Shown: positions 30,902-35,450 of the stretch, in pieces | Layout: every line of letters starts with the position of its first letter | Numbering within the stretch: the first letter of the stretch is position 1 | Origin: an uncultured Acidobacteriota bacterium | GTDB taxonomy: Bacteria; Acidobacteriota; Blastocatellia; RBC074 | NCBI GenBank assembly: GCA_963796275.1 | Contig: CAWCKY010000004.1 | Coordinates: forward strand, 1,120,001-1,184,000 | Direction of reading: 5' to 3' | DNA: 64,000 bases | The notes under the pieces: generated by a model | The model's input: only the letters and a program-made list of their open reading frames with translations | Told to the model about the DNA's origin: nothing | The model's database searches: none | Program-made: the position numbers and the translations under genes

Positions 30902-31402
30902 GTGAAACTCGAACTTGAAATTGACGGAAAAATTATGGAAGCGGAGTTCAGCTCATCCGATGGTACGGCTCTGCTCTCGTACGAGGATAAGATATACCGG
31001 GCCACCGTGAGCGAACCGGAGCCCGGAATATTCGTGATCCTCTTCAATAACCGCGTCTACCGCTGCGCCCTGAACAAATGGCCGGGTGGCGGGATGGAGG
31101 TGAACGTCAGCGGCCGACGCATTCCGGTCGCCGCTCGCGACAAGAAGCACCTGCGCGGAAATCCTGGCGCAGCCATTGGCGGCGACGGTCGTGTCACACT
31201 CTCCTCACCCATGCCGGGGAAAGTGGTCCGGATATTGCACGGTGTAGGTGACGAGGTAAACGCGCACCAGGGAGTGCTGATCGTCGAAGCGATGAAGATG
31301 CAGAATGAAGTGCAATCGCCGAAAGCTGGTAAGGTGACCGATTTATTCGTCAGTGAAGGTCAAACGGTTGAGGGCGGTGAGAAACTGGCCGTAATTGAAT
31401 AG
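30902..31402 (+). CDS. Biotin carboxyl carrier protein
   Basis: SPMPGKVV and EAMKMQNEV biotinylation motif; GTG start at 30902. Confidence 0.92.
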   Translation: MKLELEIDGKIMEAEFSSSDGTALLSYEDKIYRATVSEPEPGIFVILFNNRVYRCALNKWPGGGMEVNVSGRRIPVAARDKKHLRGNPGAAIGGDGRVTLSSPMPGKVVRILHGVGDEVNAHQGVLIVEAMKMQNEVQSPKAGKVTDLFVSEGQTVEGGEKLAVIE

Positions 31403-31412
31403 GTGTTTGTAT

Positions 31413-31608
31413 AAAAAACTACCGCAGATTCCGTAAAAGAGCGCACAGTGTTCTCCCCTCCTCTACACTCTTTTATGGTATCTGCGGCGTTCAATGACCC
31501 TTCAACAGGTAGTCCGAATATTTTGCTGCTGAGGAAAGCTTATTCCATCTTATAGCTCATCTAATTGAGCTTAAATGCCCATCTCACTATCATATCTATC
31601 GCTCTGTC
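31413..31608 (-). ncRNA. Candidate small RNA, copy 1
   Basis: Paralogous to 34123-34326; has its own promoter, a covarying internal hairpin, a long terminal hairpin and a U-run; no conserved ORF. Confidence 0.65.
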
Positions 31609-31614
31609 ACGCGT

Positions 31615-31680
31615 AATGTAATCCAATTAATTCTTTACGCATGCGAAGTAGGTCACAGAAGCAATGTGATAATGATCACA
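31615..31680 (-). promoter_or_regulatory. CRP-type class II promoter of sRNA copy 1
   Basis: -10 TACATT (31620-31615); TGCGA-AGTAGG-TCACA at 31642-31657 (centre -41.5); perfect TGTGA-TAATGA-TCACA at 31665-31680 (centre -64.5). Confidence 0.7.
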
Positions 31681-31775
31681 GTTCTGTTACAGGAATCGCG
31701 AATCGCGGCTTATGGAAATAGATACGGAGTTTTTGATAGCCCGCGAAGCGGGCGACAGCATAAAGCTGCTTTATC

Positions 31776-32758
31776 ATAGGGGTAGGAAGAGTCGATGGGT
31801 TCGACTCCCCTCCCTCCGAACCGGACGGGCGATTCTCCCGCATCCGGCTCTCCAGTCGGTGGTTTTACCTCCGAGAGGATTGACACTGTTTCGCATGGGC
31901 AGATGCTAACGAGAACAGCCCTTGCGCTTCAAAGTAGGCGTTTGGCCATCGCTGATGATCGAGACCTCGTACGCGTCCGTGTCTCCCTTGTCGGTGGCGC
32001 AAGAGCTTCTGAGTCTCATCCGAATCCATCTATCTCGATGGTTCGGTGATCTACTCCTGCGCTCCATCATTGGCCTTCACCTTGGCAAAGGCGGCCGACA
32101 GATTGGTCGCTGCGTAGACCTTATCAATCAGACTAAACCATTTGCCGCCCTTGATCCCTTTTTCAAGGGCAGTCAACATCCGTGCCGTCCAGACCGCAGG
32201 TTCCGCCCACGCCCAGCGTCGAACTATTTCGACCTCGGCCTCGGCTTCTCCGACTTGTTTAGTCTTCTCAGACACTCTCGTCGGTTGAGTTCCTTTGGTT
32301 TGCTCGCTCACGTCTCCACCTTCCTGTGCGCCCTTCACTCCGGCCCCATTACGGGCCTTCATCGCTACCTATGGGCACTCTGACTCCTCCGGGGGCGGTT
32401 CTTCGGTGTCGATGCACATGAACTCCGTCTCGTTATCCCCGAAGGTCTCCCTGATTCACGCGTCTGACCTTCCTGATCATTCCGTCTCCACGCACCTGGT
32501 AGGCCCCGGTCGTCGCTTTATCACGCTACCCCTCAGCGCGACCGATTTCCGGTCTTCCCGGTCGAGGCTTCGCCATCGAAAGGCAGGCTCGCCGACCATA
32601 CCCGGCCGAATCGAGTTGGTTATCCTACGGACTGATCGTTCACCTCCTGTTGCTCCCCACCCCGCCTCGTGGCGGCGCAATTACACTCGGTTACAGGCCG
32701 GAGAGCGTATGCCTGGAGAGGACTTTCACCCCTCTGATCAACGCGCTTTCAGGCGCAC
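31776..32758 (-). mobile_element. Group II intron (class C-like), internally deleted, 983 nt
   Basis: 5' end GTGCGCCTGAAAGCGCG; domain V/VI GAGAGCCGGATGCGGGAGAATCGCCCGTCCGGTTCGGAGGGAGGGG...CCTACCCCTAT; inserted 5 nt after a hairpin. Confidence 0.9.
31865..32311 (-). pseudogene. Remnant of intron-encoded reverse transcriptase/maturase
   Basis: N-terminal VWTARMLTALEKGIKGGKWFSLIDKVY...VKANDGA joined near 32035 to C-terminal DRWIRMRLRS...DHQRWPNAYFEAQGLFSL; the RT core including YADD is absent and there are further frameshifts. Confidence 0.85.
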
Positions 32759-32847
32759 CTATCGCCCGCTTCGCGGGCTACAGCAATATATCAAAAATCT
32801 TAATTTACAGAGTACTGATTAGTCTGTAACTTAAGTTGTCTTGTATT

Positions 32848-33560
32848 CTAGATTATCAGCAAAACATGCTGATAATGCTTATGCATCTTGCTTCTGGCAG
32901 TTTCGATGGAGAACTGCCAATTGATTTTGATCTGCTTTTCGCTGCGTTCTTTGACAAGCGCTAAAACTTGTTTCTCTAATTGCTGGATGGTCGGAATCCG
33001 CCGATCCAAACACTGGCGCGCCAGCGCCGAGAATTCACATTCGATCATGTTCAACCAACTAGCTGACTTGGGCGTGTAGTGAAACTCGAAGCGTTGCGAA
33101 AGGGCGAAGGCTTGGGCCACCGGAAAATGTTGGTAAAAAGCACTCGTCGTGTGCGTACTTAAATTGTCCTGCACTAACCGAATCTTGATCGCCTCCGGAT
33201 AGTTGGTGGCCAGTTCTTTGAGAAACAGCGCATACTCTCGCATGGTGCGTCGTGGCTCCACGCGCGCCAGGCGTTGACCTGTTAAAGGCTCAATCGCCGC
33301 AAGCAAACTGCACGATCCCTCTTTTTTATAGGCGTAATGCTCCTTGCGGACTTGACCACTTTGCATCCCAAGCGGCTCAACTACTTCCCCAATCAGGAAA
33401 CACGGCCGTTCATCGAAGCAAATGACTGGGTATTGCGGATCGTAAGGTTGACCATAGAGCCATAAGAGTTTTCCATCCGTGCGATAAACTCGCCATTGAT
33501 TCGGCCAATGCACCAGGGAGGTCTGCTTGAGATGCGGCTTCAACTCGTTTTTTTGAGAAT
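32848..33560 (-). CDS. IS630 transposase, DDE part (OrfB)
   Basis: CFDERP, VQDNLSTH, YTPKSASWLNMIECEF; reached by -1 frameshift at CTCAAAAAAACGAG. Confidence 0.85.
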
Positions 33561-34001
33561 CCGGCCGACGTGGGTATGCGAAATCTCTTCGCAATATTCC
33601 GCCTCGACCACCTTCTCGGCGAGCAAGCGCAGGCTCCACTTGGCGTGTCCTTCTGGCGTCTCGCTACAGGCTAAAGCCGTGATTTTGGCTCGCAGCTTGC
33701 CGTCGATCTCCGGCGGGCGCCCCGACCGCGGGGCATCTTCCAGGCACTTCAAGCCTTGCTTTTTGTAGCCATCGCGCCAGGCCGCGACCGTTACGTAGCT
33801 AACTCCTAAGGTCTCTGCCACGGCGGTTAGCGTTTTGCCGCGATCAAGTTCGAGTAACCCGGTGGCACGCTTGAACGTTTTGGCCGGTAGTTTTCCCTTG
33901 GAGATCAGAGACTCCAAGTAGGCTCGGTCCTTGGCGCTTAATTTAACGTGCCGTTTTTTCATCTCCTCATTATCAGGGAGATGCGTTAGATTATCAAACA
34001 A
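33540..34001 (-). CDS. IS630 transposase, HTH part (OrfA)
   Basis: LEDAPRSGRPP, ALACSETPEGHAKWSLRLLA, ending ILKKTS at the slippery A-run. Confidence 0.88.
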   Translation of the reverse strand: MFDNLTHLPDNEEMKKRHVKLSAKDRAYLESLISKGKLPAKTFKRATGLLELDRGKTLTAVAETLGVSYVTVAAWRDGYKKQGLKCLEDAPRSGRPPEIDGKLRAKITALACSETPEGHAKWSLRLLAEKVVEAEYCEEISHTHVGRILKKTS

Positions 34002-34034
34002 CTTAAGTTACAGAGTACTAGATATGATATCCCA

Positions 34035-34077
34035 ATAAAAAATCGAGCATGGGTATCTGAAATCGATACCCATGCTC
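34035..34077 (-). terminator. Rho-independent terminator
   Basis: 13-bp perfect stem GAGCATGGGTATC/GATACCCATGCTC followed on the minus strand by GATTTTTTATT. Confidence 0.7.
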
Positions 34078-34122
34078 AAAATGTGCAAGTTGTGTGTGTG
34101 TGCTTGAATTGTCGGTCAGTAT

Positions 34123-34326
34123 AAAAAACCAACCGCAGACTCCGTAAAAGATCGTACAGTGTTCTCCCCTCCTCTACGCTCTTTTACGGCATCCGCGGCG
34201 TTCAATAACCCTTAAACAGGTAGTCCGAGTTCTGATGCTGAGGAAAAAAGCTATACAACCAGCGGCTCGCTTGATCGAGCCATGATTGCCCATCTCACTA
34301 TCGTCTATCGTTTCTATCGCTCTGTC
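34123..34326 (-). ncRNA. Candidate small RNA, copy 2
   Basis: Paralogous to 31413-31608 with the same architecture. Confidence 0.65.
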
Positions 34327-34332
34327 ACACGT

Positions 34333-34398
34333 AATATAGACTGAATTATGTTTTGCGCATGCGAAGACGGTCACATGTGATGTGTGTGGTTGGTAACA
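34333..34398 (-). promoter_or_regulatory. CRP-type class II promoter of sRNA copy 2
   Basis: -10 TATATT (34338-34333); TGCGA-AGACGG-TCACA at 34360-34375 (-41.5); degenerate TGTGT-GGTTGG-TAACA at 34383-34398 (-64.5). Confidence 0.65.
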
Positions 34399-34522
34399 GG
34401 AAAGAGATTCTCTGCCAAAATCACCAACAAAAAGATGAAAACACAAAGAACTAAAAACCTGAAGATATCTCTTTTTTGAGTCGTTGGAATTTTTGTGACT
34501 TGGCGGTGCTCTTCTTCCGCCC

Positions 34523-35224
34523 TTAGCACCTTCTGGCGAGAGCCTGCTGATCGTGGATTGTGATGCGGTAATTGCGGTCGATTGAGAGATAACCGCGCTC
34601 TTTATATGAAACTATCACCCTGTTGATATGTTCACGCGACGCACCGATCAAGGCGGCGATGTCGCCTTGCGTCAGGCGGATTCCCACGTACATATCGCCG
34701 TTCTCACATCGCTGCCCGTATTGTTCGGCAAATGCGAGTATCTGGCGAGCGACGCGCCCTTCGACCGATTGGGTAGCCAGTGTCTGGATCTTCTCGTTCG
34801 CGTGGCGCAGGCGAGTTGCCAGGATGCAGGCCAGGTTATATGCCAGCATCGGCATCGCCATCAGACACCGCTGAAAATTCTCCCGATCCATCCACAACAG
34901 GGTTGAACTTTCAATGGTGACCACGCTGGCCGAACGGATGGCCTGGCCGAGAGCGCTCATCTCACCGATGATTTCGCCCGGGCCGAGGATCGCGACTATC
35001 ACGTCCCCTCCGTCCTCCTGTTCGATGTGGACTTTGACTGTCCCGCTGATAATCAAATAAACAACTTCACCCGCCTGCTCGGCGGTCATCAATGTAGTAT
35101 TGGCCGAGAAGGATTTGCGATGAATTAACTGGTTCACCTCACGCAGATGTTCGGCCGGTAGATTCCGGAACAGCGGAATATCGAAATCATCCAAATCAAA
35201 TATTATTGATTCACCGGATTTCAT
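34523..35224 (-). CDS. Crp/Fnr-family transcriptional regulator
   Basis: cNMP pocket IGEMSALGQAIRSASV; HTH TQGDIAALIGASREHINR; no Fnr-type Cys cluster. Confidence 0.95.
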   Translation of the reverse strand: MKSGESIIFDLDDFDIPLFRNLPAEHLREVNQLIHRKSFSANTTLMTAEQAGEVVYLIISGTVKVHIEQEDGGDVIVAILGPGEIIGEMSALGQAIRSASVVTIESSTLLWMDRENFQRCLMAMPMLAYNLACILATRLRHANEKIQTLATQSVEGRVARQILAFAEQYGQRCENGDMYVGIRLTQGDIAALIGASREHINRVIVSYKERGYLSIDRNYRITIHDQQALARRC

Positions 35225-35450
35225 AAGCTTTTACAGGTCCTGTGCCGCGCGCCACATTAGAGCGCTTCTTTATAATAGCGCTTCATTATTATAATTCTAA
35301 CTGTTCCGAAAATCGTTCAGATTGGGAAAGTCCTGTTGAGGCAGATTCGAATGTATCACAGGCCCGTGAGATTTGAAAATTTGAGATCTGATATCTGTCC
35401 CTTTTCCTCCCGACCTCTCTAATCCCTAACGGAGCAAGTCATTTCAAAGC

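Follow-up and report, generated by a model that had tools for sequence, protein, structure and literature searches.

Putative paralogous genes for a ~200-nt non-coding RNA beside a Crp-family regulator gene in an uncultured Acidobacteriota bacterium

Two diverged direct repeats in the genome of an uncultured soil Acidobacteriota bacterium (Blastocatellia; RBC074) are putative paralogous genes for a ~200-nt non-coding RNA on the minus strand, and they look like a new, predicted sRNA family. The repeats lie in a 64,000-nt stretch (assembly GCA_963796275.1, contig CAWCKY010000004.1, 1,120,001-1,184,000, forward strand), all of which is called the window here. The preferred reading, with a probability of roughly 0.6, is that they are Crp-activated sRNA genes, formerly a tandem pair, each with an activator-type promoter and an intrinsic terminator, and that their RNAs act in trans. 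A paralogous sRNA pair had been proposed in an earlier note on this DNA, and every in silico test named there that was run supported it. The predicted transcripts and their parts are:

31413..31608, minus strand: sRNA copy 1, predicted transcript of ~196 nt (5' end placed 7 nt past the -10 box; 3' end at the U-run after the hairpin)
34123..34326, minus strand: sRNA copy 2, predicted transcript of ~204 nt (sequence, fold and alignment)
31422..31489, minus strand: terminal hairpin of copy 1 (~27 bp stem; loop GAGGAGGGGAGAAC at 31450-31463; then U-run 31413-31418)
34133..34198, minus strand: terminal hairpin of copy 2 (inverted repeat and fold; loop 34161-34174; then U-run 34123-34128)
31490..31517, minus strand: most conserved block of copy 1, UCGGACUACCUGUUGAAGGGUCAUUGAA, near-invariant over two genera
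31525..31539, minus strand: CU-rich block of copy 1, GCUUUCCUCAGCAGC, an anti-Shine-Dalgarno-like candidate seed kept in 7 of 8 copies
31555..31570, minus strand: internal hairpin of copy 1 (GCUCA/UGAGC; compensatory changes in three of five pairs)
34264..34281, minus strand: internal hairpin of copy 2 (GGCUCG/CGAGCC; alignment and fold)

The repeats extend over 31405-31690 and 34119-34400, with no further copy in the genome. Used as a BLASTN query on the 9.46 Mb genome, copy 1 matches only itself and copy 2 (E 6.9e-48, 77% over 249 nt), which rules out chance similarity, and a dispersed repeat or MITE is ruled out by the presence of just two adjacent copies genome-wide (BLASTN and covariance model). 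A repeat search resolves direct-repeat blocks at 31413-31517/34124-34228 (90%) and 31587-31657/34305-34375 (79%) and an exact 16-mer, TGCCCATCTCACTATC, common to both copies, and their MAFFT pairwise alignment covers 324 columns with a mean column identity of 85%. Repeat search, MAFFT and BLASTN thus confirm the diverged direct repeats of the earlier note, and the five exact shared blocks it listed can all be read in the window. The repeat is longer than its transcribed part because the promoter has been duplicated too, and the predicted lengths fit the ~200 nt per copy first suggested. The covariance model built here, R1, scores copy 1 at 212.6 bits (31410-31613) and copy 2 at 186.5 bits (34121-34331).

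Both copies fold, on the sense strand, into an intrinsic terminator with a ~27 bp stem and a run of six U, and the minus-strand -10 box, long hairpin and U-run originally described for each copy are seen in the alignment and folds of both. The fold energies have z-scores of -4.14 and -3.10 relative to shuffled sequences. In the alignment, 11 pairs are changed on both sides as compared to 3.0 after shuffling (none of 500 shuffles attains the observed figure), counts that are not independent because they come from only eight full copies from five related sources; paired cells amount to 92.8%, against 89.8% in shuffles. The double-sided changes are located in the internal hairpin (three of five pairs) and the terminal hairpin (8 of 26). 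The difference between GCUCA/UGAGC and GCUCG/CGAGC, which had been taken as compensatory, is real in the alignment, and the wobbles of the terminal stem fit the minus strand as claimed, with 23 G-U cells versus 4 A-C cells in the eight aligned copies. Helices 1, 2, 3 and 5, four of the six predicted, have zero compensatory changes in the aligned copies. Pairs of an alternative helix, UCAGC/GUUGA, change on both sides once (M11B) and are broken twice (W2), too little evidence to displace helix 2 of RNAalifold. A possible pseudoknot between the loop and the CU-rich block (UUUCCUC with GAGGAGG) is invariant on both sides by eye.

The copies appear to be non-coding. No ORF of at least 20 codons, on either strand of eight copies, is constant in frame and ends from copy to copy, and a TTG frame of 28 codons that runs through the hairpin is shifted in frame from one copy to another; the contrast drawn earlier between ATG GGC ATT TAA in copy 1 and a 39-codon ORF in copy 2 is correct. 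A search of the whole window with Rfam 15 (4227 models) at gathering score finds only tRNA and Intron_gpII. Over 31000-35000, no family matches the copies at E<=10 either, the overlapping matches being noise of microRNA models on the hairpins (22.4 and 18.1 bits, where gathering scores are 96 and 66). The view that the pair is assignable to no known family therefore stands with this Rfam result.

Each copy is preceded by two boxes resembling TGTGA-N6-TCACA, and a gene for a Crp-family regulator lies beside them:

31615..31620, minus strand: -10 box of copy 1, TACATT (T-A-n-n-n-T is invariant in 8 of 8 aligned copies)
31642..31657, minus strand: Crp-like box 2 of copy 1, TGTGACCTACTTCGCA, with a 21-nt spacer to the -10 box downstream
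31665..31680, minus strand: Crp-like box 1 of copy 1, TGTGATCATTATCACA, a perfect palindrome (alignment and genome site scan)
34333..34338, minus strand: -10 box of copy 2, TATATT (alignment)
34360..34375, minus strand: Crp-like box 2 of copy 2, TGTGACCGTCTTCGCA (alignment)
34383..34398, minus strand: degenerate box 1 of copy 2, TGTTACCAACCACACA, read by eye in the alignment
34523..35224, minus strand: Crp-family regulator gene, 233 aa, directly upstream of copy 2 on the same strand

Box 2 is kept in all eight aligned copies, with a spacer to the -10 box of 21 nt in seven and 22 nt in the other (G001B). Counted from the predicted transcription start, its centre would lie near -41.5, which is class II geometry, and the -35 position of copy 1 reads CATGCG. 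Perfect TGTGA-N6-TCACA sites are not enriched in the genome (5 found, 7.3 expected), and box 1 of copy 1 is one of them. The strict pattern of box 2, 20-22 nt and TAnnnT occurs three times in 9.46 Mb, and two of these are the sRNA promoters.

The regulator has the Pfam domains cNMP_binding (2.6e-20) and HTH_Crp_2 (1.5e-15), and its closest solved relatives are chains annotated as Crp/Fnr-family regulators (3h3u, E 8e-31). The R-E-x-x-x-R pattern is present in its recognition helix, ASREHINR, which is aligned to ASRETVNK of 3h3u. The genome encodes two class III nucleotidyl cyclase domains. It also has further Crp/Fnr-type candidates, and the neighboring gene is for that reason unproven as the cognate regulator. 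The sequence CCTGTGATACATTCG upstream of crp is common to genomes G000 and G001 and is not seen in G011, which bears on the question of autoregulation.

A covariance-model search, as suggested in the earlier note, found homologues in related genomes. They occur as one to three tandem copies with the same synteny in 4 of 87 family genomes and in two metagenome contigs. There are nine copies from five sources: two in G000, three in tandem in G001, one each in G002 and G011, and two in metagenome contig L011; G002 looks the same as metagenome contig L012. In all nine the gene order is crp, RNA copy or copies, terminator. Copy 1 runs head-on toward a biotin-carrier gene, as first described, and ends 7-11 nt from the stop codon (31402) of this convergent Biotin_lipoyl gene, which is syntenic in G000, G002/L012, G011 and locus L047 of genus g5. 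The earlier argument against a leader holds, since in the two carrier genera the element never precedes a gene on the same strand and ends at its own terminator. A cis-regulatory leader or riboswitch is thus ruled out: each copy at the g1, g10 and metagenome loci leads to a terminator and then to another copy or a convergent gene.

The spread of the RNA itself is narrow. R1 matches 30 of the 87 genomes at E<=0.01, but the 26 outside genera g1 and g10 all score <=49.8 bits and are read as generic long hairpins, many of them matching both strands at one place. G004, an unpublished genome among the 87, has one such generic match of 36.6 bits and no Crp match at threshold. A search at the level of the order covered the same 87 genomes and gave no additional homologue, a pattern scan of the genome contigs returned only the already known G011 and G001 loci, and the metagenome pattern scan returned two contigs. 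Run with filters off on 21 of the 30 Crp loci, all in other genera (loci of g1 and g10, the short L050 and L057, and L062, L065 and L066 were not included), R1 gave only generic hairpin matches, so homology with the transcripts of g5, g12 and g2 is not established.

The Crp-plus-double-box promoter, as predicted, is far commoner than the sRNA and appears to drive unrelated transcripts in other genera. A regular expression finds the double box, a 21-22-nt spacer and a -10 box downstream of Crp orthologues or paralogues at 20 of 30 loci, and four more (L043, L045, L049 and L070) have such a promoter by eye. In some of these genera, the gene it drives encodes a protein. Other genera have the CTCAGC motif of the CU-rich block in unrelated Crp-linked transcripts; in 20 predicted Crp-linked transcripts, each 330 nt long, it is counted 19 times (~1.6 expected), and it is missing from mRNA-type loci except for one occurrence in L061. 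It is conceivable, if doubtful, that the Crp paralog works with the RNA as a dedicated cassette in which a cyclic-nucleotide signal is passed on mostly via RNA, with the regulator's only strong sites in 9.46 Mb lying before its own sRNA copies. The slot downstream of crp would then be an evolutionarily stable socket whose payload is swapped between genera, those observed to date being at least three mutually unrecognisable non-coding RNAs sharing CUCAGC, or a secreted beta-lactamase-like protein.

The two copies were probably once adjacent in tandem and are now split by two mobile elements, both outside the sRNA:

31776..32758, minus strand: group II intron remnant between the copies (RF00029 domain V/VI, 55 bits at 31776-31852; GUGCG at 32758)
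32820..34017, minus strand: IS630-like insertion sequence between the copies (31-nt terminal inverted repeats; ORFs with HTH_32 and DDE_3)

A search of two intron-remnant ORFs for an RT domain found none. These elements, the adjacent Crp-family gene and the Crp-type boxes are additions to the earlier note.

In the proposed mechanism, the Crp paralog with its cyclic nucleotide would bind the two TGTGA-N6-TC(A/G)CA boxes before each copy, the proximal one near -41.5 at a promoter without a -35 element, and recruit RNA polymerase, and the RNA would end at the long hairpin and U-run. The RNA would act in trans, most likely assisted by Hfq, with an invariant unpaired block that pairs to mRNA targets at their ribosome-binding regions; the CU-rich, anti-Shine-Dalgarno-like CUUUCCUCAGC and/or GGACUACCUGUUGAAGGGU are the candidate blocks. 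An adjacent tandem duplication, as in the relatives, would have come first, and the IS630-like element and the intron remnant would later have moved the copies ~2.3 kb apart. Hfq is encoded in the genome (PF17209, 89.9 bits, C3:803873-804049) and both terminators are U-tailed, so the RNAs are probably Hfq-assisted. Complements of 11 nt to both RNAs number 1947 genome-wide against ~1400 by our own estimate, which is near chance; restricted to start regions, they include many Shine-Dalgarno-like matches, as expected of an anti-Shine-Dalgarno-like seed. Among seed matches the best, of 14 nt, falls at the ribosome-binding site of a dapB-like gene; it is conserved in neither G001 nor G011 and was rejected as evidence.

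The RNA may instead be a decoy that binds a protein or the ribosome through its purine-rich, Shine-Dalgarno-like apical loop, GAGGAGGGGGAGAAC, rather than pairing with mRNAs. All seven copies in genus g1 and the metagenome contigs have the loop unchanged over a covarying stem, and its GGGAGAAC is retained in G011 too. This is nevertheless unlikely, since the neighboring genes suggest no partner protein and each RNA has only one purine-rich loop, where CsrB-type sponges carry many GGA loops. A search with PF02599 found no CsrA gene in the genome, which is 94.7% complete, and did match control genomes. A CsrB/RsmZ-type sponge is accordingly ruled out, the CsrA/RsmA partner not having been found, and the suggestion that the loop titrates an RNA-binding protein gains no support.

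A reading of the element as chiefly a 3' untranslated region belonging to crp mRNA, either processed into an sRNA or acting only as a terminator, and not as a gene in its own right, is quite unlikely. Read-through from crp is possible in G000, G001 and G011, where the first copy follows the crp stop with no terminator in between, and in G001 and G011 box 1 begins 10-17 nt past that stop. In L011 and L012/G002, however, a strong hairpin with a U-run separates crp from the RNA, and every one of the eight copies has its own activator boxes and conserved TAnnnT -10 box in silico, even second and third tandem copies far from crp. Expression data touch on the same point. No sequencing run contained half or more of the query words in the run search, and for X16, X18, X4 and X1 the data were Logan contigs only. 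The X18 RNA contig covers 31523-31681 and continues upstream, spanning the promoter region, and the X16 RNA contig covers 31410-31495 and continues into the end of a relative's biotin-carrier gene; DNA carry-over is possible for both. Both of these short metatranscriptome contigs extend past the predicted sRNA ends, and neither contains a discrete sRNA.

That the repeats are functionless, decaying relics (the duplicated promoter and terminator of a lost gene) or encode a small protein is very unlikely. Their narrow spread, the protein gene behind the same promoter in other genera and the short ORFs in single copies would fit, but blocks of 10-28 nt are invariant over two genera in transcripts otherwise ~65% identical, compensatory changes maintain the stems, and no ORF stays in a constant frame. 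It is highly improbable that the long hairpin is chiefly a terminator or stabiliser of the convergent biotin-carboxylase operon, or that the RNA acts there by convergent transcription: the syntenic Biotin_lipoyl gene, its stop codon so near the U-run of copy 1 and the X16 contig that joins its end to the hairpin would agree, but the plus strand has no T-run after the hairpin, no such gene faces copy 2 or the extra copies in G001 and L011, and the conserved 5' domain and promoter are left unexplained.

Acidobacteriota are among the most abundant soil bacteria, and to our knowledge almost nothing is known of their RNA regulators. A full-text literature search for Blastocatellia and noncoding RNA found no paper, and a table in a 2022 review gives four annotated sRNAs for Acidobacteriota (PMC9029176). 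The locus offers a concrete candidate pair of regulator and sRNA, with predicted start sites, ends, operator boxes and candidate seed, and its conserved promoter slot spans the whole family. If the preferred reading of Crp-activated, trans-acting sRNAs is true, it would tie cyclic-nucleotide sensing to post-transcriptional control in Acidobacteriota and provide a clear example of a promoter that has lasted longer than the transcript it drives.

Acido-1 and Acido-Lenti-1 are acidobacterial RNA motifs in Rfam. The present RNA is likewise a candidate structured RNA of this phylum from comparative genomics, but none of the 4227 Rfam models matches the copies, even at E<=10. CyaR (RF00112) and Spot 42 (RF00021) are CRP-cAMP-controlled, Hfq-dependent sRNAs of E. 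coli with unpaired seeds, Spot 42 being repressed rather than activated by CRP-cAMP. Like them, the present RNA is proposed to carry a cAMP-receptor-type signal into post-transcriptional control; it differs in its phylum and in having no Rfam match, and the E. coli sRNAs do not lie beside crp.

FnrS (RF01796) is an FNR-activated, Hfq-dependent enterobacterial sRNA with a class II site at about -41.5. The present RNA resembles it as a candidate trans-acting sRNA with a Crp/Fnr-family site at the class II position and an intrinsic terminator. It has no match to FnrS in sequence or structure, is about twice as long, occurs in one to three tandem copies and has two boxes per promoter beside the presumed regulator gene, whose sequence, unlike FNR, has no N-terminal Cys cluster. 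OmrA/OmrB, PrrF1/PrrF2 and AbcR1/AbcR2, whose sequences and regulators are unrelated to those of the present pair, are likewise adjacent duplicated genes, each with its own promoter and terminator under the same regulator, as is predicted here. Copy number varies among relatives in such tandem pairs, as it does here (1, 2 or 3), and the present pair differs from them in having an IS element and an intron remnant between its copies.

The two stretches are genuine diverged direct repeats. A repeat search pairs 31413-31517 with 34124-34228 at 90% and 31587-31657 with 34305-34375 at 79%, along with exact common blocks, and a MAFFT alignment of copy 1 and copy 2 gives a mean column identity of 85% over 324 columns. 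With copy 1 as the BLASTN query, only copy 1 and copy 2 are found in the window's own assembly (E 6.9e-48; 9.46 Mb, 7 contigs, completeness 94.7%). The repeats and exact blocks described in the earlier note are therefore borne out, and the internal-hairpin change it reported (GCUCA/UGAGC versus GCUCG/CGAGC) can be read directly in the aligned copies. Its observations that copy 1 reads ATG GGC ATT TAA where copy 2 has a 39-codon frame, and that a biotin-carrier gene lies head-on against copy 1, are likewise confirmed.

Each copy has the same layout on the minus strand, as follows.

Predicted parts of the two copies, in order of transcription
31680 to 31665, minus: box 1 of copy 1, a perfect TGTGA-N6-TCACA-like palindrome
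Upstream of copy 2, minus: box 1 of copy 2, degenerate
Between the boxes: gap of 7 nt
31657 to 31642 (copy 1) and 34375 to 34360 (copy 2), minus: box 2, TGTGACC...TTCGCA
Between box 2 and the -10 box: spacer of 21 nt
31620 to 31615 (copy 1) and 34338 to 34333 (copy 2), minus: -10 box, TAnnnT
After the -10 box, minus: segment of ~130 nt with one short hairpin inside
At the 3' end, minus: terminal hairpin (stem of ~27 bp, purine-rich loop of 13-14 nt) and six U after it

With a start 7 nt past the -10 box, the predicted RNAs, about 196 and 204 nt long, would run from 31608 to 31413 and from 34326 to 34123. This putative start would centre box 2 at -41.5, the class II position of Crp/Fnr activators; the -35 position lacks a TTGACA-like hexamer. 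Both RNAs fold with energies below those of shuffled sequences (z -4.14 and -3.10).

RNAalifold predicts 47 pairs in six helices from eight transcripts, and 92.8% of cells are paired, falling to 30-48% when the 3' partners are slid as a control. Double-sided changes occur in 11 pairs versus 3.0 +/- 1.4 in shuffles, and 0/500 shuffles reach the observed value, although these covariation counts come from eight related sequences and the shuffle figures thus overstate independence. The double-sided support falls in the internal hairpin (3/5 pairs) and the terminal hairpin (8/26). Helices 1 and 2, which are long-range, and the small helices 3 and 5 are almost invariant on both sides and so show no double changes among the eight sequences. 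In the terminal stem 23 cells are G-U and four are A-C, an excess that fixes the sense strand and agrees with the minus-strand assignment made earlier from G-U wobbles. The claim that no ORF is conserved also stands, since no frame of at least 20 codons is kept across the copies on either strand.

Copy 2 has a co-oriented gene directly upstream, whose 233-aa product carries cNMP_binding and HTH_Crp_2 domains. Among solved structures this product is closest to chains that were deposited as Crp/Fnr-family regulators (3h3u and others, E about 8e-31), which we take to be the M. tuberculosis cAMP receptor protein. The regulator helix ASREHINR aligns to ASRETVNK of these relatives, and its R-E-x-x-x-R/K pattern is presumably the one that reads TGTGA in E. 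coli CRP. The genome also encodes Hfq and two class III cyclase domains. The convergent gene downstream of copy 1 has a Biotin_lipoyl domain, and rpsO and pnp are situated past crp. Upstream of crp, CCTGTGATACATTCG at 35348-35362 (minus) is common to the window's genome and its relative G001, with none seen in the relative G011, and is a possible autoregulatory half-site.

By BLASTN, 4/61 related genomes carry the element. Searching relatives with a covariance model, as the earlier note proposed, does yield homologues: R1, built from eight copies, detects the element at E<=1e-12 in 4/87 genomes of the family (G000, the window's own, and G001, G002 and G011), in 2/17 genera. The remaining R1 matches in the 87 genomes all score at most 49.8 bits and many fall on both strands at one spot, so we read them as generic hairpins. 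Pattern scans across the whole collection add one further contig with two tandem copies (metagenomic L011), and L012, apparently identical to the G002 locus. There is one copy in G011 and G002/L012, two in G000 and L011, and three in G001, the third being interrupted by a contig end. The order is always crp followed by the RNA copy or copies, with the convergent biotin-carrier gene next wherever the contig continues. A separate hairpin and U-run lies between crp and the first copy in L011 and L012/G002, and is absent from G000, G001 and G011. The record for L009 is titled an uncultured Heliobacteriaceae MAG, yet its crp-sRNA locus is the same as that of G011; since G011 is placed in the same acidobacterial family as the window, the record may carry a wrong title.

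The DNA between the copies is mobile.

Features between copy 1 and copy 2
About 32758 to 31776, minus: group II intron remnant of ~1 kb, with RF00029 (domain V/VI) at 55 bits at 31776-31852 and GUGCG at 32758, the 5' end
31737-31758 and 32759-32780: 22-nt inverted repeats around the intron remnant, each with a GCCCGC...GCGGGC hairpin
32789-32816: solitary IS-end-like repeat, a 28-nt copy (89%) of the IS630-like right end, directly beside the element
32820-34017: IS630-like element; inverted repeats of 31 nt form its ends, and its transposase is encoded by two ORFs, HTH_32 first and DDE_3 second

The transposase is apparently frameshifted, and two ORFs tested in the intron remnant lack an RT domain. 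With 31737-34019 removed, the two starts would lie about 430 nt apart, near the tandem spacing read from coordinates in the relatives (about 360-445 nt in G001, about 510 nt in L011), which suggests that the twin arrangement is a tandem duplication later split by mobile DNA. A second strong terminator-like hairpin (34043-34079, minus; 15 pairs then TTTTTTATT) lies about 45 nt downstream of the copy 2 terminator and just ahead of the IS element, with a short (GT)n run at 34092-34103 between that terminator and this hairpin.

The promoter appears to predate the RNA. Crp orthologues or paralogues occur in 49/87 genomes (protein search, E<=1e-40), and the 650 nt downstream of crp were surveyed at the 30 loci which that search returned. 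A regex finds the double box, a 21-22-nt spacer and a -10 box in 20 of these; four more (L043, L045, L049, L070) have the promoter by eye, and six lack it within the 650 nt. In the window's genome the strict pattern of box 2, spacer and -10 box occurs three times, at the two predicted sRNA promoters and once within a gene. The sequence behind the double-box promoter varies among genera. In genus g5 (L047, L048, L050-L052), conserved non-coding sequence of about 350 nt extends as far as the same convergent biotin-carrier gene and contains nested hairpins and two CUCAGC motifs; it may represent another, unrelated family of Crp-linked sRNAs. Part of genus g12 (L063, L067, L070, L071, L072) carries sRNA-like units downstream of crp paralogues; these lie behind a promoter of this type and contain one to three CUCAGCC motifs, after which comes a GAGAGCGCAGG...CCTGCGCTCT terminator. 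At other g12 loci (L058 2310-3656; also L059-L062, L064) this promoter is followed by a 5' leader and then by a secreted protein, at least 449 aa long, with tandem aromatic-rich repeats and an S-T-S-K motif in its C-terminal part, which by eye looks beta-lactamase or serine-hydrolase-like. At the 21 loci of other genera searched with it, R1 does not recognize the Crp-linked transcripts.

In the mechanism we propose, cNMP-loaded Crp would activate the sRNA promoters, and the sRNA would act in trans, probably assisted by Hfq, through the invariant CU-rich block CUUUCCUCAGC, the second conserved block GGACUACCUGUUGAAGGGU, or both; Crp binding, Hfq dependence and targets are all predicted here. 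CUUUCCUCAGC is anti-Shine-Dalgarno-like, and its core CUCAGC recurs in 11/20 predicted Crp-linked transcripts elsewhere (10 non-coding-type and one mRNA-type, L061), with 19 occurrences in 6,600 nt versus about 1.6 expected, kin transcripts not being independent. Both points are counted in favour of the CU-rich block as the seed; that target searches found no conserved target counts against it. The purine-rich loop is unlikely to act instead as a decoy, a role left without a partner as CsrA is not detected in the window's genome (94.7% complete).

No Rfam model matches the RNA, in line with the earlier note, which could assign it to no known family, and our literature search found nothing on non-coding RNAs of Blastocatellia, the related work concerning other phyla. 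Together these suggest a new sRNA family of a familiar kind, and we rate the predicted sRNA as such, with two genera so far. The enterobacterial FnrS, CyaR and Spot 42 appear alike in kind, as Crp/Fnr-controlled sRNAs, and the tandem sRNA paralogues OmrA/B, PrrF1/2 and AbcR1/2 appear to resemble the present pair in gene organisation.
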